Below are positions 21,797 through 53,408 of a stretch of DNA of 64,000 nt, piece after piece. The stretch is taken from contig SUUV01000001.1 in the NCBI GenBank assembly GCA_015062345.1, positions 21,588 through 85,587 on the forward strand, written 5' to 3'. Under the pieces are notes generated by a model. The model did no database searches and was not told the DNA's origin. It saw only the letters and a program-made list of their open reading frames with translations. The first letter of the stretch is position 1. Each line of letters starts with the position of its first letter. Origin of the DNA: Alphaproteobacteria bacterium (lineage in GTDB: Bacteria; Pseudomonadota; Alphaproteobacteria; RF32; CAG-239). Both the position numbers and the translations under genes were made by a program.

Positions 21797-21828
21797 CCTC
21801 CGATTTATATAATCGGAGGATTTTTTTA
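21797..21828 (+). terminator. Rho-independent terminator
   Basis: cctccgatt-tatat-aatcggagg followed by T7. Confidence 0.7.
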
Positions 21829-21944
21829 TAACTCTTAACCGCCAAAATAAACAATGATTATAATTTTTTATGTCCCTTAAAAAATTTAAATACTTTTTCG
21901 ACCTGACACGCAGTGCGGCTCATAGAATGACTTTTATTTAAAAT

Positions 21945-22295
21945 CGGAAAATATTTGTTTTTTATTCTCAAACTTTGCAACATACCTCCTAACTGTCACT
22001 CCGGCACTTGATGCTGAAGTCCGCCTCCTAACTGTCACTCCGGCACTTGATGCCGGAGTCCAGGTGGTAATATAGCTTTAGTTATTCCCTTAGATACCGG
22101 TGTCTATTCCAAGCTAAAGCTTGGGCACCGGTATGAAAGTAAAGGAGGCAACACCTCTACCTCATTTTTGATTTAAATTCACAATTAGACTCTTTTTACT
22201 TGCAAAAAAAAAAAACGGTTTATGATGCGTATTGAGGGGTAATTTTTACACCTTTCAAGTACATTTAAACTTAATTTTTGTAAAGGATTAAAATT
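21945..22295 (+). promoter_or_regulatory. conserved upstream module, copy A, ahead of an SCPU pilin paralog
   Basis: About 350 bp shared with 36756-37045 (reverse complement) and 47648-47956, and in its proximal part with 38781-38920. It contains the hairpin ctccggca-cttga-tgccggag (tandemly duplicated as 32-bp units in this copy), a gataccggtgtc core, a palindrome ccaagctaaagcttgg, and then TTACTTGCA-A12-CGGTT-TATGAT before the ATG. Confidence 0.75.
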
Positions 22296-22757
22296 ATGAG
22301 AAAATATTTTCTAATATCCGCTGTTGCCCTCTTGGCTGCAACATCTGCAAATGCAACCACCGATTACGCTGAAGTAACAGCTCGTGCTACCATTGAAGTG
22401 GCAACTACTATGGACTGTACAGATGTAGACTTTGGTACAATCGTTGTTAAGCAAAACAATGCCGCATCTACAGTAACTATGGATGCTGATATGGGAAAAG
22501 TATATGGAGATGGTGATATTTTATCTATAGATTCCGATGAAACATTCTTCTCTTGTAACAATGGCGATGGTATGCCTATCACCGGAATATATTTATCTTT
22601 TCCTTCATCGATAGTCCTTAGTAATGGTAATGGCGGAGAAATGACTGTTGGTTTTTCAACAAACGGAGCAGAAAGTATCGATGCTGTGCTACATATCCCT
22701 GCTAAAGTTCAGTCAGGTGATTATACAGAAACATTTACCGTAACTTACACATACTAA
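22296..22757 (+). CDS. spore-coat-protein-U (SCPU)/Csu-type fimbrial major subunit, paralog 1
   Basis: Signal peptide MRKYFLISAVALLAATSANA, a DFGTIVV motif, and a C-terminal G-Y-T-x-T-F-T-V-T-Y-T-Y beta-strand typical of SCPU/archaic chaperone-usher pilins. Confidence 0.7.
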   Translation: MRKYFLISAVALLAATSANATTDYAEVTARATIEVATTMDCTDVDFGTIVVKQNNAASTVTMDADMGKVYGDGDILSIDSDETFFSCNNGDGMPITGIYLSFPSSIVLSNGNGGEMTVGFSTNGAESIDAVLHIPAKVQSGDYTETFTVTYTY

Positions 22758-36248: not shown

Positions 36249-36755
36249 TTATTCTACAAATACTAACTGCATACTACCTACATATGTACCGGCAAGATAA
36301 TCAGCTATAGCCTCCGTCCTTATAGTTGGGGTTGAAACTAATACAACCCCTTCACTGTCAAATTCATCTGATTGCAACTCAAAATTAGGTTCTACTACAA
36401 AATGAGGGTAACTGGTTCCATCTGCATCATTTGTATGAATAAGACTTATGTAAACATCATCTATAACCAGATTTAAATCCCCCTGATAATCTGTTGTACA
36501 ATAAAAAGTATAATCAGATTTACTTGATGATACAACCATATTAGGATTAGGCATTCCGTTTGTTATAAGATCATCACCATTCTCACCTAGCATACTATTA
36601 ACGACTATAGTTCCAAAATCCATCTTTTCACAATCAAATTTAACAGCATATTCAATTTTTACTTCAGCCTCTAAAGATGTATAAGCTGTAGTAGCATTTG
36701 CTGATGTTGCAGCCATTAAAGCTACAGCAGATAAAAGAAAATATTTTCTCATCAA
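36249..36755 (-). CDS. SCPU/Csu-type fimbrial major subunit, paralog 2
   Basis: MMRKYFLLSAVALMAATSANA signal peptide, a DFGTIVV motif, and a C-terminal GTYVGSMQLVFVE. Confidence 0.65.
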   Translation of the reverse strand: MMRKYFLLSAVALMAATSANATTAYTSLEAEVKIEYAVKFDCEKMDFGTIVVNSMLGENGDDLITNGMPNPNMVVSSSKSDYTFYCTTDYQGDLNLVIDDVYISLIHTNDADGTSYPHFVVEPNFELQSDEFDSEGVVLVSTPTIRTEAIADYLAGTYVGSMQLVFVE

Positions 36756-37045
36756 TTTAATCCTTAAAAATAGTTAAACTTAATTTGAAAAGCTAAAAAT
36801 TAGCCTTCCAAGACGCATCATAAACCGTTTTTTTTTTTTGCAAGTAAAAAGAGTCGTTTAAAAGATTTAAATCAAAAATGAGGTGACGGTGTTGTCTCCT
36901 TTACCGTCATATCGGTGCCCGAACTTTAGTTCGGAATAGACACCGGTATCCAGGGAATAATTTAGCTATATTACCACCTGGACTCCGGCATCAAGTGCCG
37001 GAGTGACAGTTAGGAGGTGGTTGCAAAGTTTTGAGAAAATATTTA
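36756..37045 (-). promoter_or_regulatory. conserved upstream module, copy B (minus orientation); T12 tract at 36828-36839
   Basis: Its reverse complement aligns with copies A and D along its full length. The palindrome is changed to cgaactaaagttcg, a compensatory double change relative to caagctaaagcttg. Confidence 0.75.
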
Positions 37046-37230: not shown

Positions 37231-38688
37231 TCAATTAGATTTATCTTTTACTGTAACATATTTTTGATTCGGAGCATGTGAAGAAGATTGAGTTCTGATA
37301 AGCAATCCTTTATCTATGAGTGGTTTTATAATTTTATTCATAAAATGAACTCTACTTGTATATTTAGAAATAGTCATAATTTCAACCAAAGATTTAGGCT
37401 CAATACAAAAATCTAATATTTTCTCTATAAGATATGTTACTTGATCACTTACTTGATCACTTACTTGATCACTTACTTGATTACTTACTCTATGTATAAT
37501 ATCATCAAAACAATTTATTTGCCAATCTAGTTTAAATACTGTTCCATCTGTCAACATCGGAGCATATCCTGCATATATTTTTGCATACTTAGCAATATTC
37601 CTAATGCCGGACCCAAGTTCTTCTGCCCAACCTATTTCCTTAAAAAAGCGCGCAATAACAGGATTTTTCGGATATGGTGTACTATTATCCGGATTAATAT
37701 TACCATAAATATATGGTTTATTTCCGTTTTCCGCATATATTTTATTCTTTTCAATAATTAATCTGGACGGATAATGATCTGTAAACTCTCTATGCATCAG
37801 AAAATTAATTGCAATTTCTCTAAATAAAATACTCCTCAAATCAACTCGAGCATCTCCTTCTAAATAAAACGGTGAAGGCAAATGCTTAGCAATAAACATC
37901 ATTATACGCTCATAGCTTTCTATAAGATTAGTTCTGATATCATCTCTATCATCATATCTTTCAATGTTTCTGATTCTTAAAATCAAATCTGTCTTATAGT
38001 GAGGTAAAACAGATTGAATAACTTCATCTTTTCCAAACAATAAAACACAAGCTAGTGTATATCCTTCTTTACCCGATAAATAATCTGTCTTATACAAACC
38101 GGCACTTTTTAACAGCTGTTCATTTGTAAGATTCTTCCAAGGATGGTCAGCCTTCCTGATTACAGCCATTGTACGACATTTGTTTATAACATCTTCTCTT
38201 AAATGATTTATGCTGATTCCGGAATAAATATCATTTTCTGAATATGTCTTATCTTTATTAGCATACAATTTTGCAATTTGCTTTGGTTGTTGAGTAATGT
38301 CAATATCTCCATCAGCAGCACTGCGTATATAGATTTTATTACAACAAAAATGAACTTCTGAACTTGCAGGAACAAGAATATATAAAATCTGTTTACCCTC
38401 GATTTTTATTTCTTCAACCGATAAATATAAAGGAGGATTAAATTTTGAGATATTATTTATGGTATTTGTAAAATCTTTCTTCATTTGAGCAATTTTATCT
38501 TTATCAATACCCAAAACTTCACCATTATCACTAACACCCAGTAAAATATGCCCTCCCAAAGTATTTGAAAAAGCACATACGGTTTCATAAATGCTTTTAG
38601 GTAACAATCCGTGTTGTGCGCTTTTAAATTCGGTTCTTATCCCTTCACCATGAGTTATAAGTGTTTTTATATTTTCAATCATCTGCAA
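37231..38688 (-). CDS. AlbA_2 (divergent AAA / Schlafen-like) domain protein with a C-terminal wHTH; putative DNA-binding regulator
   Basis: The N-terminus EGIRTEFKSAQHGLLPKSIYETVCAFSNTLGGHILLGVSDNGEVLGI is the classic AlbA_2 signature. The C-terminal winged helix is often annotated as RecG-C-terminal-like. It contains a (VSDQ)n repeat. Confidence 0.7.
   Translation of the reverse strand: MQMIENIKTLITHGEGIRTEFKSAQHGLLPKSIYETVCAFSNTLGGHILLGVSDNGEVLGIDKDKIAQMKKDFTNTINNISKFNPPLYLSVEEIKIEGKQILYILVPASSEVHFCCNKIYIRSAADGDIDITQQPKQIAKLYANKDKTYSENDIYSGISINHLREDVINKCRTMAVIRKADHPWKNLTNEQLLKSAGLYKTDYLSGKEGYTLACVLLFGKDEVIQSVLPHYKTDLILRIRNIERYDDRDDIRTNLIESYERIMMFIAKHLPSPFYLEGDARVDLRSILFREIAINFLMHREFTDHYPSRLIIEKNKIYAENGNKPYIYGNINPDNSTPYPKNPVIARFFKEIGWAEELGSGIRNIAKYAKIYAGYAPMLTDGTVFKLDWQINCFDDIIHRVSNQVSDQVSDQVSDQVTYLIEKILDFCIEPKSLVEIMTISKYTSRVHFMNKIIKPLIDKGLLIRTQSSSHAPNQKYVTVKDKSN
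37434..37489. repeat. in-frame 12-bp tandem repeat (ttacttgatcac, three perfect copies plus a degenerate fourth) encoding (VSDQ)n
   Basis: Direct reading gives gttacttgatcacttacttgatcacttacttgatcacttacttgattacttactc. Confidence 0.8.
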
Positions 38689-38780: not shown

Positions 38781-38920
38781 TTACCTCATTTTTGATTTAA
38801 ATTCTTTAAACGACTCTTTTTACTTGCAAAAAAAAAAAACGGTTTATGATGCGACATGAGAGGTAAATTTTTGCACCTTTCAAATGTACTTAAACTTAAT
38901 TTTTGTAAAGGAATTAAAAA
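38781..38920 (+). promoter_or_regulatory. conserved upstream module, copy C (proximal 140 bp only); A12 tract at 38828-38839
   Basis: cctcatttttgatttaaat...ctttttacttgc-A12-cggtttatgatgcg...; the distal hairpin region is absent. Confidence 0.7.
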
Positions 38921-39367
38921 ATGAGAAAATATTTTCTTTTGAGCGCAGTTGCACTCTTGGCAACAACCACCGCCAATGCAACCACAGACTATGCCGAAGT
39001 AACAGCTCGTGCAGAAATTCAAGTGGCTAATGAATCTGCTTGTGATGATATAGATTTTGGCACTATTGTTGTTAAGGACGGAAACGAAGCTTTTACTATC
39101 GGATTTTCAGGAATAACCGGTGACGGAGAATCTGATGTTATATCCGTTGGCGAATATACTAAGTATATTCATTGCACAAATATGGGAGATTCTGCAAATA
39201 TCGATGAAGAGACAATAATACTAAAAAATAAAACCGGTGATGAAATGTCATTACGTCTTATGGGTGGCATTCCTAGTGATGAAGAATTTGCTGTTTATCT
39301 TGATGTTCCGAACAATGTTCATTCGGGTGAGTATACCGCTTCATTTACAATTGCTATAACCTATTAA
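38921..39367 (+). CDS. SCPU/Csu-type fimbrial major subunit, paralog 3
   Basis: MRKYFLLSAVALLATTTANA signal peptide, a DFGTIVV motif, and a C-terminal GEYTASFTIAITY. Confidence 0.7.
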   Translation: MRKYFLLSAVALLATTTANATTDYAEVTARAEIQVANESACDDIDFGTIVVKDGNEAFTIGFSGITGDGESDVISVGEYTKYIHCTNMGDSANIDEETIILKNKTGDEMSLRLMGGIPSDEEFAVYLDVPNNVHSGEYTASFTIAITY

Positions 39368-41427: not shown

Positions 41428-42054
41428 ATGAAAATCTTAATTGCTGATGACCACGCATTGTTCAGGGACGGACTTGCCATGCGTTTGGAGGAAATTAACC
41501 CCGACATAATTTTACATCAGGCAGCAACATTTTCCCAAGCCGTTAAAATTTTGGATAAAGAAAATGATATCAATATGATTATTGTCGATTTAGATATGCC
41601 GGATATGAAATGGGAAGACGGTATCAACGAGTTAAAAAACAAAGCTCCCGATGTTTCAATGGTTGTTATCTCCGCATCGGAAGACATCAGAAACATTCGC
41701 AAAATTTTAGCTACCGGCATTAAGGGTTACATTCCTAAACGCTCCGACCCCAAAATTATGCACAATGCCTTAAAGCTAATCTTAGAAGGAGGCACTTACA
41801 TTCCGCCGGCCCTGATTGAAAACACTTCCGAGAGCTCTGCAAGTTCGCATCGTTCAAACGGCAAAACCTTAACCAACCGTCAATCACAAGTTTTAGATTT
41901 AATTGCACAAGGAAAATCCAATAAACAAATTGCTTATGAAATGGGAGTGTCGGAGGCAACCGTAAAACTTCATATCAATGCTTTGTTGCGCTCCTTAAAA
42001 GTCAACAATCGCACGCAGGCAGTTGTTACTGCTCAAAAAATGGGCTTAATTTAA
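41428..42054 (+). CDS. two-component response regulator, NarL/FixJ (LuxR-type HTH) family
   Basis: Receiver domain (ILIADDHALFRDGL...DLDMPDM...) and a C-terminal LuxR HTH (LTNRQSQVLDLIAQGKSNKQIAYEMGVSEATVKLH). No adjacent histidine kinase is present. Confidence 0.85.
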   Translation: MKILIADDHALFRDGLAMRLEEINPDIILHQAATFSQAVKILDKENDINMIIVDLDMPDMKWEDGINELKNKAPDVSMVVISASEDIRNIRKILATGIKGYIPKRSDPKIMHNALKLILEGGTYIPPALIENTSESSASSHRSNGKTLTNRQSQVLDLIAQGKSNKQIAYEMGVSEATVKLHINALLRSLKVNNRTQAVVTAQKMGLI

Positions 42055-47605: not shown

Positions 47606-47647
47606 ATAAAACAGAAGTTCTGTTTAGTGTATTTTATTAAAAGTCAG

Positions 47648-47956
47648 AAAATATTTGTTTTTTCTCCTCATACTTTGCAACATACCTCCTCACTGTCACT
47701 CCGGCACTTGATGCCGGAGTCCAGGTTAAATTATATAGCTAAATTATTCCCTGGATACCGGTGTCTATTCCAAGCTAAAGCTTGTGCACCGATATGACCG
47801 TGATGAGAGACAACACTTCTACCTCATTTTTGATTTAAATCTTTTAAACGACTCTTTTTACTTGCAAAAAAAAAAACGGTTTATGATGCGTATTGAAAGG
47901 TAAATTTTTGTACCTTTCAAATTAAGTTAAACTATTTTTGTAAAGGAATTTTAAAA
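47648..47956 (+). promoter_or_regulatory. conserved upstream module, copy D; A11 tract at 47866-47876
   Basis: Aligns along its full length with copy A and with the reverse complement of copy B. It starts right after the nth terminator. Confidence 0.75.
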
Positions 47957-48400
47957 ATGAGAAAATATTTTCTTTTGAGCGCTGTTGCCCTCTTGGCTGC
48001 AACATCTGCAAATGCCGGAACTGATTATGCCGAAGTAACTGCTAAGGCTACAATTCAAGTAGCAAGTAAATTTACTTGTTCTGATTTAGATTTTGGTACA
48101 CTTGTTTTTAAACAAGGTAATGAGGCTTTTAATTACGGTATAGATGGATATTTTTCAGCAACCAATACACATAAAGACTTGATTTCTGCAAGCGGAATAA
48201 GTTTTAGTTGCGAAATGCCGAAAAATCCACAAGTTGAAGTTGCTGATATAACCTTAAAAAATGAAAATTCTGATGAACTCACTCTTAATTTGATGTTAGG
48301 AATGACCAATGAATTTTACTATGAGCCACAACTTAAAATCCCTGCCAATGTTCAACCGGGTACATATACGGGAACATTTACCATTACAATTGTAAATTAA
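47957..48400 (+). CDS. SCPU/Csu-type fimbrial major subunit, paralog 4
   Basis: MRKYFLLSAVALLAATSANA signal peptide, a DFGTLVF motif, and a C-terminal GTYTGTFTITIVN. Confidence 0.7.
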   Translation: MRKYFLLSAVALLAATSANAGTDYAEVTAKATIQVASKFTCSDLDFGTLVFKQGNEAFNYGIDGYFSATNTHKDLISASGISFSCEMPKNPQVEVADITLKNENSDELTLNLMLGMTNEFYYEPQLKIPANVQPGTYTGTFTITIVN

Positions 48401-48442: not shown

Positions 48443-51400
48443 TTATTTTTCTTCTTCGGCTTTGATAACTTCAGGTTCTTTTTGTTCTGATGTCATGATA
48501 GCTTCGGTAACAGGCTTATCTTCAGATTTATTTTCCGAATTATCTTCGGAGTTTTCTTCTTCATCATCACCTGCAATCAAACCAACTGCCGTAGCCGTTG
48601 CCGCAACACCTGTCGCCGTTACGGCATCTGTTGCAGAACTTGCAACATCACCAACCGCCTCAGCAACACCTGTAAGAGCATCTAAAGGAGCAGATACAAT
48701 GTCATCTGCCACATTTTCAGCGCTACTTTCGGCATTTGTTGCTTCAACAGCCTCAGACATTGTTGCGGCTACCTTATCCAAATCCGTACCTTCTGAAGTT
48801 TCATCGGTTGCGGCATCTGTTGTACCCTCACCGATACCTTCTTCATTGTAGAAAATTTGGTCAACATAGATATCAACATCATCAACCGTAATATCATCAA
48901 GTTGAGTTAATATCTTGCCGTCTCGTCTGACAACCACATCATATGTACCAAACGGAACATCGGTTACAATGAAATATCCTTCCAAGTCGGCATATACAAC
49001 CGAAACATCGTTGCCTTGTTCATCAACGGCGGCAATTTCATATCCGTATAGGCGCTTTCCTTCCGGATTTGCCAAATATCCTTCAATGTTACCGAAGTGT
49101 TTGAACAAAATATCAACAGTTTTAACCGTTCCCGGTCTGAGAACTAATTTTTTGGTATCATCAACCGGCTTTAATGCCACATCTTCAACCGATTCGATAT
49201 CAACGGTTAAAATGGTTTTTTCATATGACAACAAGTCAGTCAGCAATGCCGTACCTCTTTCATCGGTATAAACATCATCAACCAAGTTATTGGCTTTCAA
49301 ACCGACACCCTCAAGCGGTGTACCGTGTTCGTCGTGAGCTCTTACAAATATAGATCCCGAACTGCTGAACTGCGAGTTGTTTGAAGTCAAAATTCTGACT
49401 CCGCCGGGCTCTTTTGCAAAACTTACATTGTAGGTTAAATATGCAGACGCATTTTTATCACTGTCATATTGTAAGGTTAACGACAAACCGCCGAACGGGA
49501 AAATTCTGGAGCCCGATACCGAATAATAGTCACGGTCGGTTTCCAAATCTCGCCTGTATGAAGCTGTCCAATATGTATATCTGTCATCACGCCATGTTAA
49601 CTTACTTGAATATTCCAATGCATCAGGATTGGGGTTTGTTCTGTAGGTTAACATATTTTCCAAAGAAAACTTATCCCAATAGTTATAAACCGTAGGCTTA
49701 ACCTCGTTTTCGTGATTGATGGCATCATAGGTGTCTTCAATTGAAACATACCAACCTCTGGAAATATTTTTCGAAATTCTTCCCACGATATCTTCATACG
49801 GAATTTCACCGTTTTCTTTTTCACCGGTTCTATAACTTACATAAAACGGCAACGCAAAAGGCAATGTTCCGTTAAAACGAAACTCGGTTTTGTTTTTCAA
49901 ATATTCATTACCGTAATATGATACCGGCGAATGCAACTCGTTATATTCATCATAAGATGCATACAATGTACCGACATAAATATCACCTTGCCATTCGGCA
50001 TGATGTCCGATATTGCCGGTGTCAAAATTGCGTTCTAAGTTATATTGAATGGAGCTTCCCTTAATGGCATACTGAAAACCTGTCATCGAAAAATACTCAG
50101 TTTCGGTTTTGGTAACCTCATCAGGAGTTTGTGTTACACCGGCCATTAAAGTTAAGTTATCGGTTAAACCATAGTAGAAGTTAGAATCTAAAACCAGAAT
50201 ATCTTTGCCTTCATACTTATTGGTTTCATAGGTTTCAACCAAATATCTCCAAGGTTGATAAGCGGCAATATTATAACCGATTTCACCTTTCTTAACCGGA
50301 CTGGTACCGGCATAATATCTTTTTTCTTCGGTTCTTACCTCACCGTACGGACCATAGAAAACAAGCTTAAATGTATTTAAACCATATGAAACCGGAATGT
50401 TGGCAAAGTTATATTGTCCGGCCTCACCGTTTTGTTTATATCCGATAAGCTGATTGTTCCAATATAACTCAACTTCCCAACCCTCAACCAAAGGACCGGT
50501 AATGTTAATGGTTTTGTTAGCACTCATCACCAAGTTTTTAAAGCTCGATGCCGTAATACCTCGACCATAACTGGCACTTGAAAAATATGAGTCGCTGATA
50601 CCGTTGATATCACCGAGTTCAAACTTTTTCAAATTGATTGCGTTCGGCGGATCGTTCAAAAGTGTTCTTCCGGCCGAAATTCTAAATGTCGGGTCATGGT
50701 CATTAGATGAGTTACCCGAAATATAGCTTATAACATCAAGTCCGGCGGCAATGGTCGAAAAGTTAAGAGCATATGAACTGCTGTCGGTATAATCTCCGGT
50801 GCTTTCCGAATATTGCAAACCTGCACCGACCTGAACGTCAAGCACCGGTGTACCGATTAGGCGCTCATCCATTTCATAGCCCTTAAAACTGTTGTCTTGC
50901 ATAGTGTAAAGGCCTTTGCTTTTACGGCGCTTATCCGCATTTAACTTAACCAATGTCGGAAACTCGGTATCACGGTCAATGTTAAGTGTCATATCGTAAA
51001 AGTCAATTTTTAATTCTATCGCCAAAAAGCGCTCTAAAAAGGATGAACTGAAGAACATGGTATCATCTAAATATTTATAATCAGATTCGACCATATCAAT
51101 TTTTGTATCGCCTTTTTGTGCGGTAAAATTGTTCAAATCAATATCAAAAACAAATTGCTTTGCGTTGATATAGTTAATTTTTACGATATTATCCTCGTTT
51201 TTATAATCAAGACCTATAAGATTAGCAAGCTGTGTCAACGGAATGTAAACCGTTTGACCCTCATTATAAGCATAAACATAATCATCAGCCAAGTAGCCTT
51301 GAACAACGGTTTCCAAAATAAGGTCCGTATCCTCGGGACGATAAGCTTCATCTTCACTTTCTTTTACAGACGACTGTTCTTCATCGGTTGTAGCATCTTG

Positions 51401-51667
51401 AGCAGTTTCAGTTTCATCATTTTCCTGCTCGGCAGATTCCTCACCGGATTCTTCACCTGCACCCTCAACAGATTCTTTTTCCGATTCTTCAGATGCTTCG
51501 TCTTCGGAAACGGCGGTTTCTTCGGTTGAAGATTGCTCCTGTTCCTGATTTTGTTTATCCTCAAGTTTTTCAACTTGTGCAGTTTCAGATGCGTCTTGTT
51601 TTGTATCGTCCGCTTGCACTGCTTTTGATAAAACTATAAGCAGTGCAAGAAGTCCGAATTTAAACAT
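48443..51667 (-). CDS. fimbrial usher-like outer-membrane protein with long acidic N- and C-terminal extensions
   Basis: About 1070 aa, immediately downstream of a PapD-like chaperone and overlapping its stop. It has a signal peptide (MFKFGLLALLIVLSKAVQA), a beta-rich central region of about 800 aa rich in Tyr and Gly, and tails rich in Glu, Asp and Ser. The family assignment rests on context and size. Confidence 0.5.
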   Translation of the reverse strand: MFKFGLLALLIVLSKAVQADDTKQDASETAQVEKLEDKQNQEQEQSSTEETAVSEDEASEESEKESVEGAGEESGEESAEQENDETETAQDATTDEEQSSVKESEDEAYRPEDTDLILETVVQGYLADDYVYAYNEGQTVYIPLTQLANLIGLDYKNEDNIVKINYINAKQFVFDIDLNNFTAQKGDTKIDMVESDYKYLDDTMFFSSSFLERFLAIELKIDFYDMTLNIDRDTEFPTLVKLNADKRRKSKGLYTMQDNSFKGYEMDERLIGTPVLDVQVGAGLQYSESTGDYTDSSSYALNFSTIAAGLDVISYISGNSSNDHDPTFRISAGRTLLNDPPNAINLKKFELGDINGISDSYFSSASYGRGITASSFKNLVMSANKTINITGPLVEGWEVELYWNNQLIGYKQNGEAGQYNFANIPVSYGLNTFKLVFYGPYGEVRTEEKRYYAGTSPVKKGEIGYNIAAYQPWRYLVETYETNKYEGKDILVLDSNFYYGLTDNLTLMAGVTQTPDEVTKTETEYFSMTGFQYAIKGSSIQYNLERNFDTGNIGHHAEWQGDIYVGTLYASYDEYNELHSPVSYYGNEYLKNKTEFRFNGTLPFALPFYVSYRTGEKENGEIPYEDIVGRISKNISRGWYVSIEDTYDAINHENEVKPTVYNYWDKFSLENMLTYRTNPNPDALEYSSKLTWRDDRYTYWTASYRRDLETDRDYYSVSGSRIFPFGGLSLTLQYDSDKNASAYLTYNVSFAKEPGGVRILTSNNSQFSSSGSIFVRAHDEHGTPLEGVGLKANNLVDDVYTDERGTALLTDLLSYEKTILTVDIESVEDVALKPVDDTKKLVLRPGTVKTVDILFKHFGNIEGYLANPEGKRLYGYEIAAVDEQGNDVSVVYADLEGYFIVTDVPFGTYDVVVRRDGKILTQLDDITVDDVDIYVDQIFYNEEGIGEGTTDAATDETSEGTDLDKVAATMSEAVEATNAESSAENVADDIVSAPLDALTGVAEAVGDVASSATDAVTATGVAATATAVGLIAGDDEEENSEDNSENKSEDKPVTEAIMTSEQKEPEVIKAEEEK

Positions 51668-51668
51668 A

Positions 51669-52439
51669 CTACTTACTGATGTTTGCCTGCAAAATTTCTT
51701 TTCCTGTGAGTCCATCTTCTAGTACCAAAGTTGTGGGTTTTGTTTTAACATCTTTTTTCAAAGAAACCGAAACTGTACGCTTTGTGTTCGGCAAATAAAT
51801 TCTGACATTGTCTGTTCTGCCGATTTCTTCACCTTTTTCATCTTTTACAATAAGTTTAACACGAGAAGAAATGTTACCTAAACGATTTAATACAACTTCA
51901 ACTTTACCGTCTTTAACTTTCGCACTTTCAACTTCAGTTTTTGCGTACAAATCTTTACCTTTTAAGATAGTAACCGGAATACCGATTGCTTGCAAAACCT
52001 TAACCGATACGGACAAAGTATCTTCTTCACCTTCTTCGGTTGCTTTTTTAACTCTGGGCATTTCAACTTCACGAACAACCAAGTGAGTAACGCTTTCACC
52101 GTCTGCCATATTACCCAAACCTTTTCTTGCAACTCTGATTGCTTGTGTTTTACCCGGTTTTAAGGTAAATTGTTTTGGTGAAAATACCAAAAAGTCTTTA
52201 GCGGAGTTTTCCATAGTTTCAACTTCTTCAAACTTACCTTGTTCGTTTTGTTTGTATTGAACCAAATTTACTCTGTATGTTTGAAGTTCGTTTGAACTGT
52301 TCATAATGTTAAGTGTTTGCGATCTTTTACGAGAATTTTCCTCAAAGTCAACAGCCATCGGGAAAATTGTAAAACCTGCATAAGCTTTAGAAACCGCTAA
52401 GCAAGCAAGTAATGTATAAAGACATATTTTTTTAAGCAT
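51669..52439 (-). CDS. periplasmic pilus chaperone (PapD-like fold)
   Basis: Signal peptide. The first domain shows the pattern FTIFPMAVDF...RSQTLNIMNSS...LVFSPKQFTLKPGKTQAIRVAR, which resembles the PapD/FimC strand pattern. Confidence 0.6.
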   Translation of the reverse strand: MLKKICLYTLLACLAVSKAYAGFTIFPMAVDFEENSRKRSQTLNIMNSSNELQTYRVNLVQYKQNEQGKFEEVETMENSAKDFLVFSPKQFTLKPGKTQAIRVARKGLGNMADGESVTHLVVREVEMPRVKKATEEGEEDTLSVSVKVLQAIGIPVTILKGKDLYAKTEVESAKVKDGKVEVVLNRLGNISSRVKLIVKDEKGEEIGRTDNVRIYLPNTKRTVSVSLKKDVKTKPTTLVLEDGLTGKEILQANISK

Positions 52440-52460
52440 TTTGTACTCCTTAAAATTATA

Positions 52461-53408
52461 TTATTGATAGATTAAATTAACTGTAAAACTTCCGGTATAA
52501 CTTCCGGCAGGTTGGTCTTTGCCGACATGTAAAGTTGCGCCGACCGCAATATTTTGAGTTGATAACCCGTCACCGGCAGGAAGCGTAAACACGGTAGACG
52601 GTGCAAAAGTAAATGTATCAACCGTCATTGAATTTGCATTATCGGAAGTCTTAATTTCCAAACTTTCAGGCGAAACACTTGCCTGAATGGTGCGTCCGGC
52701 AACACCGCTTACGGTTGCTTGTCCGGCAGTTGCATCTTTTTTTGAAAGCATGGTAACATTGTTTAATGTCACATTACCATCAGGTGCCAAAACAATTGTA
52801 CCGGCGGCAGTCGGTGAAACAACCGTACCGAAACTCATATTCGAAATGTTGGAAATTGTAATCGGGTTATCGGTCTCAACCGCAACTTGTAAAGTGGCAT
52901 CGGGTGTATCATCAATTACGGCAATACCTTCTTCATCAGCCAAACTGTACGGAATGTTGACACTTCCTTTATAGGTATCTGTTTCACAAAAACCCGAAAT
53001 CTTAACGCTTGCTCCGATATTTATTTTTCCGTTAGGTTGGTCGGGTGTTAAAAGAACGGCTGTCGGAGTTGCCGTAAAATTTGAAAATGTAATGGTGCAA
53101 CCATCACCTTCAATGGTAGCCGTAGGCATTTCATTGTTAATAAGAACTACTCTGTTTGCAGTTTCTCCCTCGGCAAAATCATATGTAAAGCTTAAAACAC
53201 CGGCATTTTTAATGTGCGTACCTTGAACAAAAGCTCCTACCAACTCAACATCACCGTTGGTAGCAAGCACCGCTGAAGATTCTTTTTGGGATAAAATTAT
53301 CTTACCTAAATCCATAAAATCTGTGTTTTCAACAATTAAATCGGCAAAACAAGGCGTTGATGCCAAACATAAAGACATAAATGTAACAAAATTTCTAACT
53401 TTAACCAT
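52461..53408 (-). CDS. two-domain SCPU-type fimbrial subunit (tip or adhesin-like)
   Basis: Signal peptide, an internal MSFGTVV motif (compare DFGTIVV in the paralogs), and a C-terminal GSYTGSFTVNLIYQ. It is the first gene of the chaperone-usher operon. Confidence 0.55.
   Translation of the reverse strand: MVKVRNFVTFMSLCLASTPCFADLIVENTDFMDLGKIILSQKESSAVLATNGDVELVGAFVQGTHIKNAGVLSFTYDFAEGETANRVVLINNEMPTATIEGDGCTITFSNFTATPTAVLLTPDQPNGKINIGASVKISGFCETDTYKGSVNIPYSLADEEGIAVIDDTPDATLQVAVETDNPITISNISNMSFGTVVSPTAAGTIVLAPDGNVTLNNVTMLSKKDATAGQATVSGVAGRTIQASVSPESLEIKTSDNANSMTVDTFTFAPSTVFTLPAGDGLSTQNIAVGATLHVGKDQPAGSYTGSFTVNLIYQ

Follow-up and report, generated by a model that had tools for sequence, protein, structure and literature searches.

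A candidate phase-variable promoter cassette, with an optional palindromic element, upstream of a large family of pilin-like genes in an uncultured ruminant-gut alphaproteobacterium

We analyzed a 64-kb stretch of alphaproteobacterial DNA, called the window here, in which four paralogous genes for secreted proteins are each preceded by a co-oriented copy of one upstream module. Each module copy carries the letter of the paralog that it precedes. The coding features are as follows:

22282 to 22757, + strand: Shine-Dalgarno site (AAAGGA) and pilin-like paralog A, with its ATG at 22296
36249 to 36752, − strand: pilin-like paralog B (family HMM, E 2e-40)
38921 to 39367, + strand: pilin-like paralog D (family HMM, E 1.5e-56)
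47957 to 48400, + strand: pilin-like paralog C (DUF4402, E 1.4e-5)
48443 to 53408, − strand: putative assembly operon encoding a two-domain DUF4402 protein, a PapD-like chaperone and a 1090-aa putative usher

An earlier note on this DNA had called the four genes SCPU pilins, a name that the Pfam search did not bear out: the paralogs carry a signal peptide, and their one reported match, at or near threshold, is to DUF4402; none matched SCPU (Spore coat protein U, PF05229) even at E ≤ 10. Their fold has weak similarity to a chaperone-usher pilin. In the operon near copy C, the chaperone (51669–52439; PapD_N, E 2e-7) adjoins the two-domain DUF4402 protein (E 1.5e-30); the 1090-aa putative usher had no usher-domain match, and no module was found 5' of the operon. 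The DUF4402 family most likely comprises the subunits of a chaperone-usher-type pilus. The archaic (sigma) chaperone-usher pili, such as Acinetobacter Csu and Pseudomonas CupE with their SCPU pilins, likewise have small secreted beta-rich subunits and a PapD-like chaperone operon nearby. In contrast to those systems, the subunits here are DUF4402 proteins, the putative usher has no recognisable usher domain, and dozens of subunit genes are dispersed, whereas Csu and Cup subunits are encoded inside operons. A literature search for DUF4402 found no papers.

Alignment confirmed all four module copies at the positions listed below, each co-oriented with and in front of a paralog, as had been claimed. 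The elements described earlier were present in the order given: a GC hairpin, ACCGGT, CAAGCT-AA-AGCTTG (CGAACT-AA-AGTTCG in copy B), cctcatttttgatttaaat, TTGC-A(11-12)-CGGTT-TATGAT, and a leader with a ribosome-binding site. Homology of copy A, which had been placed at 21945–22295, reaches ~20 bp further 5', to ~21925. A 30-nt hairpin probe matched the window solely at 21993, 22032, 36980–37009 (− strand) and 47693, with 0 matches expected from shuffles, which rules out a chance origin of the repeated block. In a search of related sequence, the palindrome block matched within module copies and nowhere else. The ~300-bp block is two separate parts, a proximal core of ~140 bp and a distal hairpin-rich part. 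The proximal core runs from a palindromic box (box1) through GACTCTTTTTAC, TTGC, A(n), CGGTT, TATGAT and a 5'-UTR hairpin to a Shine-Dalgarno site, and is laid out as follows:

22159 to 22178, + strand: copy A box1, ACCTCATTTTTGATTTAAAT, at about −74 to −55; conserved in 27 of the 27 cores listed
22188 to 22203, + strand: copy A −35-region block, GACTCTTTTTAC-TTGC; invariant in the window copies and in most others
22204 to 22215, + strand: copy A A12 tract, filling the promoter spacer; one of four window homopolymers of ≥10 nt
22216 to 22226, + strand: copy A CGGTT and −10-like TATGAT; invariant except in two cores with TAAGAT
22232 to 22258, + strand: copy A 5'-UTR hairpin, TTGAGGGGT..ACCTTTCAA; in the minimum-free-energy structure of all four copies
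36753 to 36884, − strand: copy B proximal cassette; box1 36884–36865, TTGC 36843–36840, A12 36839–36828, TATGAT 36822–36817, then a leader hairpin and Shine-Dalgarno site
38783 to 38920, + strand: copy D proximal cassette, which has no distal part; box1 38783–38802, TTGC 38824–38827, A12 38828–38839, TATGAT 38845–38850
47821 to 47956, + strand: copy C proximal cassette; box1 47821–47840, TTGC 47862–47865, A11 47866–47876, TATGAT 47882–47887

The earlier count of four copies holds for the window but not beyond it, where dozens of paralogs have the cassette. The proximal ~140 bp was 77–90% conserved throughout the family members examined, which supplied 49 copies from two species, with at least 30 paralogs in each genome. 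These 49 cores fall into 29 distinct kinds, and an MRKYF... paralog lies downstream in all except one; at least 30 paralogs bear locus tags of a single MAG. A MAG of another species had a proximal match at 77–90% identity at 17 of 17 loci and a distal match at 3 of the 17. TTGC-A(n)-CGGTTTAnGAT and box1 were common to all 27 cores listed, with box1 of copies other than A in the palindromic form TCAAATTTGA/GATTTAAATC. Across ~330 kb of related sequence, each module copy adjoins a family gene and none lies elsewhere, in line with the earlier view of the module as a genuine cis-regulatory unit specific to a single family of paralogs. In the public metagenome_contigs collection, which evidently lacks this lineage, the pattern for distal hairpin H1 (see below) had 0 matches and the promoter-core pattern had 4, all unrelated and attributable to chance; neither pattern matched viral_contigs.

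Among the window copies, the cassette and signal-peptide codons are ~82% identical, versus 53% across the remaining gene, and the proteins are 34–48% identical; mature proteins of the family share only 34–50% identity. Alleles are mosaic: L002 and L006 encode an identical protein A behind different leaders, and L032 is locus B with the alternative palindrome allele. Recombination (gene conversion) probably keeps the cassette and signal-peptide codons alike among paralogs while the mature protein diverges. From these sequence comparisons, we infer that the ~300-bp block serves as shared promoter and leader for pilus-subunit genes that form a very large family in an uncultured ruminant-gut alphaproteobacterium. 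The cassette accounts for assembly breaks at these loci in these genomes, and it flags every family member.

In several paralogs box1 is immediately preceded by a divergent gene or by a terminator, so the promoter must sit within the proximal block. Conservation led us to assign it to the TTGC-A(n)-CGGTT-TATGAT region. A simple sigma-70 scan did not call a promoter at TATGAT, and one feature of the spacer counts against the explanation given below: with A12 it is 15 bp counted from TTGCAA and 20 bp from TTTACT, neither of which is the 17-bp optimum. Sigma-54, ECF and extended −10 readings of the core were also a poor fit when the sequence was read. An activator-binding region, as suggested earlier, is plausible, with box1 of the proximal part (TCAAATTTGATTTAAATC, about −74 to −55) a better candidate for it than the hairpins.

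The predicted transcript begins at a conserved hairpin whose likely role is that of a stabilising 5' stem-loop; the leader would end in the AAAGGA Shine-Dalgarno site. Across the aligned leaders, 88.9% of cells in this hairpin are paired and five pairs are altered on both sides, a result matched by 0 of 500 shuffles; slid alignments, used as controls, pair 33–62%. Its numerous G·U pairs would be A·C on the other strand. A structured 5' leader, one of the functions suggested earlier, is present as a simple hairpin of 7–9 bp 3' of TATGAT; the hairpin-rich region is no part of it, lying upstream of the sole conserved promoter-like element and missing from most family members. That the module holds a c-di-GMP (GEMM) or other known riboswitch controlling pilin expression is scarcely credible. 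Such riboswitches precede pilus genes, a general precedent mentioned in the earlier note and the one point in favor of the idea, but the Rfam scan found no family at gathering score in the window and none, GEMM included, up to E = 10 in 21800–22400, and the transcribed leader is only ~65 nt long, with that one simple hairpin.

The A-tract is likely the functional center of the cassette. The four cassette A-tracts are the only homopolymers of ≥10 nt in the 64-kb window; its other long A/T runs comprise 15 of length 8 and one of length 9. Tract lengths of 8, 9, 10, 11, 12 and 13 were seen, with a mode of 12. At locus A, the window has A12 and L006 has A9. Locus C was A11 three times (window, L036 and L037) and A12 twice (L035 and L038), with both states recovered in independent assemblies, mid-contig; between L035 and L036 the single tract indel is the sole difference in 3,184 bp. 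An A12/A13 indel is likewise the sole difference between L047 and L048 in 1,700 bp, and variants at the tract border were found in L040 and L041 (locus D) and in L046. Several variants (L040, L041, L046, L048 and L050) lie ≤~70 nt from contig ends, where assembly of a repeated module is unreliable. The tract was invariant at 5 of 10 multi-assembly loci (B, eight assemblies; L008a, five; L010, three; L008b, four; L047 on the − strand, two), and a short A8 allele was unchanged across 4 assemblies. As in contingency loci, an unusually long homopolymer separates the −10 element of the putative promoter from the promoter or activator element 5' of it, and the tract length differs between otherwise identical alleles at one locus.

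We consider it reasonably probable that the module is a composite of a shared phase-variable pilin expression cassette and an optional distal accessory palindrome. The cassette is conserved, its tract is exceptional and polymorphic, its leader hairpin has support and its alleles are mosaic. By analogy with the systems compared below, A-tract length probably affects transcription and so switches each gene individually. Slipped-strand mispairing would alter the length of the tract, and any such change would shift the −10 element relative to the upstream elements, in distance as well as in helical phase. Expression of individual paralogs could then rise or fall independently, amounting to phase or antigenic variation of the pilus subunit.

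The closest parallel is in Bordetella (B. pertussis/bronchiseptica), where transcription of scattered genes for major fimbrial subunits changes with homopolymeric tracts in their promoters (PMC1891110). As with fim2, fim3, fimX and fimN, with their 'fim box' and 'C-stretch', the genes for the major subunit are paralogous and located away from the chaperone-usher operon, a conserved promoter has a long homopolymer between the upstream activator region and the −10 element, and the tract is polymorphic between strains; in Bordetella it sets transcript level (PMC1891110), whereas here a length effect and dependence on an activator are conjectural. The Bordetella activator, BvgA, is of the NarL/FixJ family, and the window encodes a NarL-family regulator (41428–42054). 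The two systems differ in that the tract is poly-A here rather than poly-C, that each genome has at least 30 paralogs here as against 3–4, that the subunits are DUF4402 proteins rather than classical fimbrial proteins, and that the cassette also includes a 5'-UTR hairpin, which is conserved, and the distal palindrome in a subset of copies. A second parallel is Mycoplasma hyorhinis vlp, along with M. arthritidis maa2 and M. mycoides vmm, in which, according to the summary in PMC2268961, a homopolymer in the −35/−10 spacer switches each gene on or off. This is a surface-protein multigene family, and its members combine a near-identical promoter, 5' region and signal peptide with divergent mature parts, as here. 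Those proteins are, however, lipoproteins, and their genes are clustered at one locus in a wall-less Gram-positive relative, whereas the pilin-like genes are dispersed among alphaproteobacterial housekeeping genes and their switching is conjectural.

The alternative is a promoter, strong or regulated, in which the A-tract plays a fixed architectural role, for instance as a spacer that is rigid or bent or as an UP-like A-tract, and in which length differences reflect neutral slippage or misassembly and not phase variation. A static tract would fit the mode of exactly 12 in both species, the absence of variation at half of the multi-assembly loci, and the position of some length variants at contig ends. 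The sharpness of that mode also counts against our explanation directly, as it could mean a selected fixed length rather than switching. There is precedent in the M. agalactiae vpma T-tract, a promoter-adjacent homopolymer that is functionally irrelevant (PMC2268961). On the other hand, a tract so long is unique in the window and inherently hypermutable, and any change in its length alters the spacing of conserved blocks. A11 and A12 at locus C, moreover, each recur in independent assemblies, mid-contig, with 3.2 kb otherwise unchanged. We regard a static tract as unlikely, though it deserves serious weight.

If the A-tract does switch expression, this ruminant-gut commensal would have one of the largest known phase-variable pilin repertoires. 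It would be built on uncharacterised DUF4402 subunits and a divergent chaperone-usher machine, and would give DUF4402 a testable function. It would also extend to uncultured gut Alphaproteobacteria a strategy known chiefly in pathogens (Bordetella, Neisseria and Mycoplasma).

The distal element is a nested palindrome of ~125 nt (~125–190 bp with its AT-rich arm), formed by a closing stem, P1, around hairpins H1–H3. P1 pairs the arms CCTCCTAACTGTCA and TGACGGTAAAGGAG. The window has three copies:

21925 to 21984, + strand: copy A AT-rich 5' arm, TTTTATTTAAAATCGGAAAATATTTGTTTTTT..ACTTTGCAAC; the same arm is in copy C, L043, L044 and L049
21985 to 22023, + strand: copy A additional 39-bp unit, made up of CCTCCTAACTGTCA and a degenerate H1 hairpin; the spacing between probe matches is 39 bp
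22024 to 22148, + strand: copy A nested palindrome; P1 arms 22024–22037 and 22134–22148, H1 22038–22058, H2 22059–22094, H3 22094–22134 with inner palindrome 22110–22123; RNA fold −65.9 kcal/mol, z −4.1
36883 to 37045, − strand: copy B distal element, nested palindrome 37020–36883 and a short 5' arm; nhmmer E 1.6e-46; fold −57.8 kcal/mol, z −5.6
47625 to 47822, + strand: copy C distal element, 5' arm and nested palindrome 47683–47822; nhmmer E 1.3e-45; fold −46.8 kcal/mol, z −4.1

The hairpin of copy A is doubled, as had been noticed, with a period of 39 bp (21985 and 22024) rather than the 32 bp given; its degenerate first hairpin is TGCTGAAG. Nor is the doubling confined to copy A, as it recurs at L043 and L049 of the same species. 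The 6-bp palindrome of the earlier description is present too, as the tip of a longer hairpin in which GATACCGGTG pairs with CACCGGTAT and not as a standalone site. Most paralogs have no distal element; it is tandemly doubled in L031 and inverted once, in L015, and H3 is found alone in L010/L059.

The double compensatory change at copy B, from which selection had been argued, is weakened by the wider comparison: the two palindrome alleles each occur more than once, exchanged among loci and also among species (L010, L032), which points to recombinational exchange of alleles rather than independent compensation at copy B. A point against our composite reading is that compensated changes in P1 and H3 suggest that the distal fold itself matters, which a passive hitch-hiker would leave unaccounted for.

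Rather than a riboswitch or leader, the distal element is in our view most probably a palindromic repeat at the DNA level, an optional accessory that moves and recombines together with the proximal cassette. The four-way-junction fold is equal on either strand, the energies of the two strands differing by no more than ~6 kcal/mol and in no consistent direction. Small palindromic intergenic repeats include Neisseria Correia/NEMIS, enterobacterial ERIC, pneumococcal BOX and Rickettsia RPE. Like these, the distal element has terminal inverted repeats, internal hairpins and a small non-coding size (100–150 bp, with a core of ~125 nt), and it is modular, occurs in either orientation and lies beside promoters. 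It has no known sequence relation to any curated family and, unlike these repeats, is not dispersed: across the ~330 kb of related sequence, we found no MITE- or REP-like spread, every copy lying beside a promoter of the one gene family. All full copies in the window's species share both flanks, so segmental duplication or conversion, and not transposition, spread them. Two further candidates were set aside. For an integron attC-like site, core-like CCTAAC and GTTAGG are confined to L015; GTT is missing from the copies of the window, and neither an integrase nor a cassette array is present. The alignment of the distal 5' arm as a decayed promoter copy was marginal, with 47 of 1000 shuffles scoring equally.

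The palindrome could instead be regulatory DNA that modulates or insulates the adjacent pilin promoter, through sites for a dimeric regulator, a cruciform or looping. Its constant place beside a family promoter, its folding without strand preference, its three separate inverted repeats with a closing repeat, and the NarL-family regulator encoded in the window would all suit such a role. We judge it unlikely all the same, given that most paralogs have the same promoter without the element, and that copy number and orientation vary; in addition, the compensated changes keep the complementarity of the arms and not the sequence of half-sites, which fits a hairpin better than recognition of double-stranded DNA.

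The element might also be transcribed and work as a structured RNA: an sRNA, or a leader upstream of the pilin promoter that continues into it or stops short of it. This seems to us very doubtful. The four-way-junction fold is strong (z −4 to −5.5), P1 arm classes co-vary, and some copies, best of all L006, have a terminator-like hairpin with a U run. Against this, there was no Rfam match and no promoter-like site 5' of the element, the opposite strand folds as well, and one copy is inverted relative to its gene. The terminator is weak or absent in most copies: hairpins of −4 to −13 kcal/mol were mostly no better than shuffles and inconsistent between copies, and the link between U run and distal element is broken by L049, which has no U run, and by copy D. 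The divergent sRNA or small ORF that had been proposed also fared poorly, as no conserved ORF (three copies), promoter, terminator signal or strand preference was found; read by eye, the frames behind a reverse-strand AGGAGGT are unconserved, with 19–40 codons and none in copy B.

A more far-reaching possibility, which we hold to be quite unlikely, is that a contingency system of at least 30 dispersed pilin genes, all with the same A-tract promoter, is coupled to the four-way-junction palindrome as a new structured element of single-stranded DNA or RNA. Its repertoire for pilus antigenic variation would far exceed that of any described chaperone-usher system. The palindrome might then act, for example, as a hot spot at which recombination or gene conversion transfers alleles of promoter and leader between paralogs, or be a regulatory RNA of a new type. 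As a separate observation, the distal palindrome keeps its fold through compensated changes, even though most promoters of the family do without it.

Reading of the region and alignment bore out the earlier note's proposal of four co-oriented modules preceding paralogous ORFs. Each copy runs to the ATG of a same-strand paralogous ORF:

~21925-22295, + strand: copy A, full module
37045-36753, - strand: copy B, full module
~47625-47956, + strand: copy C, full module
38783-38920, + strand: copy D, proximal cassette only

Matches to a 30-nt hairpin probe in the window were confined to these copies, with none expected by chance; two lie in copy A at a spacing of 39 bp, and its tandem unit, previously put at 32 bp, is 39 bp long. 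The replacement of the palindrome CAAGCT-AA-AGCTTG by CGAACT-AA-AGTTCG in copy B was also seen, and GATACCGGTG pairs with CACCGGTAT, flanking the small palindrome. The repeat is real and biologically meaningful, but the earlier emphasis on its hairpin-rich half was misplaced: the conserved core appears to be a promoter and leader cassette, and the hairpin-rich distal part is an optional accessory palindrome.

A protein-pattern scan that took one genome per species returned 17 loci, every one in the roe-deer colon MAG Alphaproteobacteria RGIG4267. A profile search returned 227 relatives, whose sources are without exception ruminant-gut alphaproteobacterial MAGs and metagenomes; no fewer than 30 of them bear locus tags of one MAG (E7016_), evidently the window's organism. 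When the four copies were compared with these loci by BLASTN, the proximal ~140-155 bp alone was common to all (77-90% identity), and the distal part was present in just three RGIG4267 loci. A regular-expression survey first identified 27 cores and later brought the count to 49, of which 29 are distinct; in each, box1 is followed by ~10 variable nt, GACTCTTTTTAC, TTGC, A(n) and CGGTTTA(T/A)GAT. A paralog starting MRKYF lies downstream of every core but one. In line with the proposed link of the module to this family, a search of ~330 kb of related sequence found no copy apart from family promoters. Metagenome and viral scans for the module gave nothing relevant.

In several paralogs, a divergent gene (copy D) or a terminator hairpin (related loci L013 and L016) lies directly 5' of box1, so the promoter must sit within the conserved block. 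TATGAT is the sole invariant -10-like hexamer of the cassette, and the other elements are counted from it:

-74 to -55: box1
-45 to -34: GACTCTTTTTAC
-33 to -30: TTGC
about -29 to -18: A-tract
-17 to -13: CGGTT

In many copies, box1 consists of the overlapping palindromes TCAAATTTGA and GATTTAAATC, whose form suggests the site of a dimeric regulator. A simple sigma-70 scan did not call the cassette promoter. An A12 tract gives a spacer of 15 bp when counted from TTGCAA and of 20 bp when counted from TTTACT; the "on" length is therefore not readable from sequence. In an unrelated organism (L024, ~3401; L027, ~3787), TTGCAAAAAAAATCGGTTTATGATATAAT precedes a tRNA gene by ~30 nt; its resemblance to the core is due to chance, and its likely -10 element is TATAAT, 17 bp from TTGCAA.

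The A-tract is likely the control point of the cassette. The 64 kb contains 15 A/T runs of length 8 and one of length 9, and the only longer runs are the four cassette tracts. Tract length across copies is 8-13, with roughly 75% of the copies at 12. At locus C (the site of copy C), the window, L036 and L037 carry A11, whereas L035 and L038 carry A12; along 3,184 aligned bp, L035 and L036 differ in nothing but the A11/A12 indel, and the variation at this locus is mid-contig and reproduced. L047 and L048 differ solely by A12/A13 over 1,700 bp. An A9 allele, set in a mosaic context, is found at locus A, and tract-border variants (TTGC-A12, TTG-A13 and TTG-A12) occur at locus D and in L045/L046. 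The tract is constant at locus B (eight assemblies), in L008a and L010 (both A12), and in the A8 allele of L008b (four assemblies). Several tract variants are close to the end of a contig, and repeated modules can be assembled as chimeras there. A recurrent replacement of TTGC by TTGA at the 5' edge of the A-tract, seen at three loci (L040, L046 and L050), improves the -35 match (to TTGAAA) and produces a run of A13; in each case it sits ~70 nt or less from a contig end and could stem from assembly chimerism.

Mechanistically, the nearest parallel is the fimbrial promoter of Bordetella, with its "fim box" and "C-stretch", which precedes dispersed major-subunit genes and whose tract length sets transcript level and varies between strains (PMC1891110). 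The vlp family of Mycoplasma hyorhinis, in which a common 5' region precedes genes that are each switched by a spacer tract, provides a second parallel (summarised in PMC2268961). A promoter-adjacent tract can be irrelevant, as in M. agalactiae (PMC2268961), which calls for caution here. Two defining features of such tract-controlled loci are found in the cassette: the position and exceptional length of the tract, and its allelic length polymorphism. We rate the system as probable homopolymeric-tract control of paralogous pilin genes, a kind already known; it stands out among such systems for its family size, its uncharacterised DUF4402 subunits and its accessory palindrome.

Among window copies, the cassette and signal-peptide codons are ~82% identical and the remaining gene 53%, and the paralog proteins share 34-48% identity. 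Alleles of a single locus taken from different samples have a mosaic make-up: an identical protein A lies behind different leaders in L002 and L006, and L032 is locus B with the other palindrome allele. We infer that the 5' cassette is under concerted evolution via gene conversion and that the mature protein is diversifying. Metagenome contigs often start or stop inside the module (L002-L006, L032-L034, L037-L042, L046, L048 and L050); the repeated cassette is evidently where assemblies of the window's organism break. A variant promoter, CACCTCAAAGATGACTAAATATCCACAAAGAAGACTCGTATAAATTGC-A11/12-CGGTTTATGAT, precedes some paralogs (L014 1-260, L059/L060 1-60, L007, L015 and L017); it is back-to-back with a normal cassette in L014, L059 and L060, and in L014 is followed by a non-family leader running off the contig. 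One family member, paralog P0058 on L043, is without any promoter cassette. Its different ~330-nt upstream region (609-936), for which Rfam gave no match, has a GC hairpin and U run (CCGCCCGCTTATTTATATAAGTGGGTTTTTC) shortly before the SD, and could be an attenuator or a riboswitch of a new type.

The ~65-nt leader opens with a hairpin (UGAAAGG, loop AAUUUUU, CCUUUCA). Across 28 distinct leaders, 88.9% of cells pair, compared with 33-62% in slid controls; five of nine pairs have both-sided changes, and none of 500 shuffles reaches the observed values. RNAalifold gives the same 7-bp core, and the hairpin lies within the MFE structure of all four window copies. In 17 sequences, A-to-G and C-to-U changes give G.U pairs, which on the opposite strand would be A.C; this marks the hairpin as a feature of the sense RNA. 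The simplest reading is a 5'-terminal stem-loop that would stabilise an abundant surface-protein mRNA, for which 5' stem-loops such as that of ompA are an established precedent. As the 3' arm (CCUUUC) is complementary to the Shine-Dalgarno AAAGGA too, the hairpin may also have a role in translation.

The distal element folds into a closing stem, P1 (CCUCCUAACUGUCA with UGACGGUAAAGGAG), enclosing three hairpins:

H1: CUCCGGCA-CUUGA-UGCCGGAG
H2: UCCAGG...CCUGGA
H3: ACCGGUG...CAAGCU-AA-AGCUUG...CACCGGU

Fold z-scores are -4.1 to -5.6, and the reverse strand folds equally well, as nested DNA palindromes would. In the window's species, the element precedes A, B, C and P0048 (L049), occurs at the end of L043, and is missing from D and six other paralogs. 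A, L043 and L049 each contain a doubled H1 unit; H3 stands alone in L010, L059 and L060; L015 has a shortened, inverted version; and a second hairpin in L017 shares the CTTGA loop but has a different stem. At locus B in another sample (L031 1-400), the single element of the window is replaced by two in tandem, together with an additional H3-like hairpin, which is a palindrome copy-number polymorphism at a single locus. The six full copies that differ from one another combine a small number of variable blocks in different ways. Even so, left and right P1 arms occur together as three matching classes, and the two alleles of H3 are each self-complementary; either selection acts on the fold, or it is kept by palindrome-templated repair and whole-element conversion. 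In size and modularity the element resembles Correia, ERIC and BOX-type palindromic repeats but, unlike them, it is not dispersed at unrelated sites in the ~330 kb of related sequence. Rfam scans of the module and the distal element gave no family, and a riboswitch reading, suggested earlier for c-di-GMP, is not supported. For the distal element, we found no promoter-like site, no consistent terminator (the U run is absent in L049) and no conserved ORF. Within P1 (22024-22030 with 22142-22148, and equivalents in B and C), a CCUCCU that resembles an anti-Shine-Dalgarno sequence is paired to a perfect AAGGAGG, after which no start codon lies at a usable distance.

The downstream ORFs, earlier called SCPU pilins, never match SCPU, even at E<=10, and match Pfam DUF4402 at or near threshold. 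Alignment shows a conserved signal peptide, N-terminal ~30 residues and C-terminal strand around a hypervariable middle. A Foldseek search with an AlphaFold model of a family protein (pLDDT 83) gave no significant match. A chaperone-usher-like operon (48443-53408, - strand) adjoins copy C on the opposite strand:

52461-53408, - strand: two-domain DUF4402 protein (E 1.5e-30)
51669-52439, - strand: PapD-like (PapD_N) chaperone (E 2e-7)
48443-51715, - strand: 1090-aa protein, sole domain match CarboxypepD_reg

The 1090-aa protein has no match to an usher domain and may be a divergent usher. The operon is preceded by its own, unrelated upstream region, with no module copy. The name "pilin" for the family proteins is reasonable but not proven. 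A response regulator of the NarL/FixJ family (41428-42054, + strand), for which ErdR is the best NCBIfam match (E 1e-40), is encoded 2 kb from copy D. A Schlafen AlbA_2 / HATPase_c_4 protein (37231-38688, - strand), of a family with frequent ties to defence or DNA-binding functions, is encoded between copies B and D, divergently from D.
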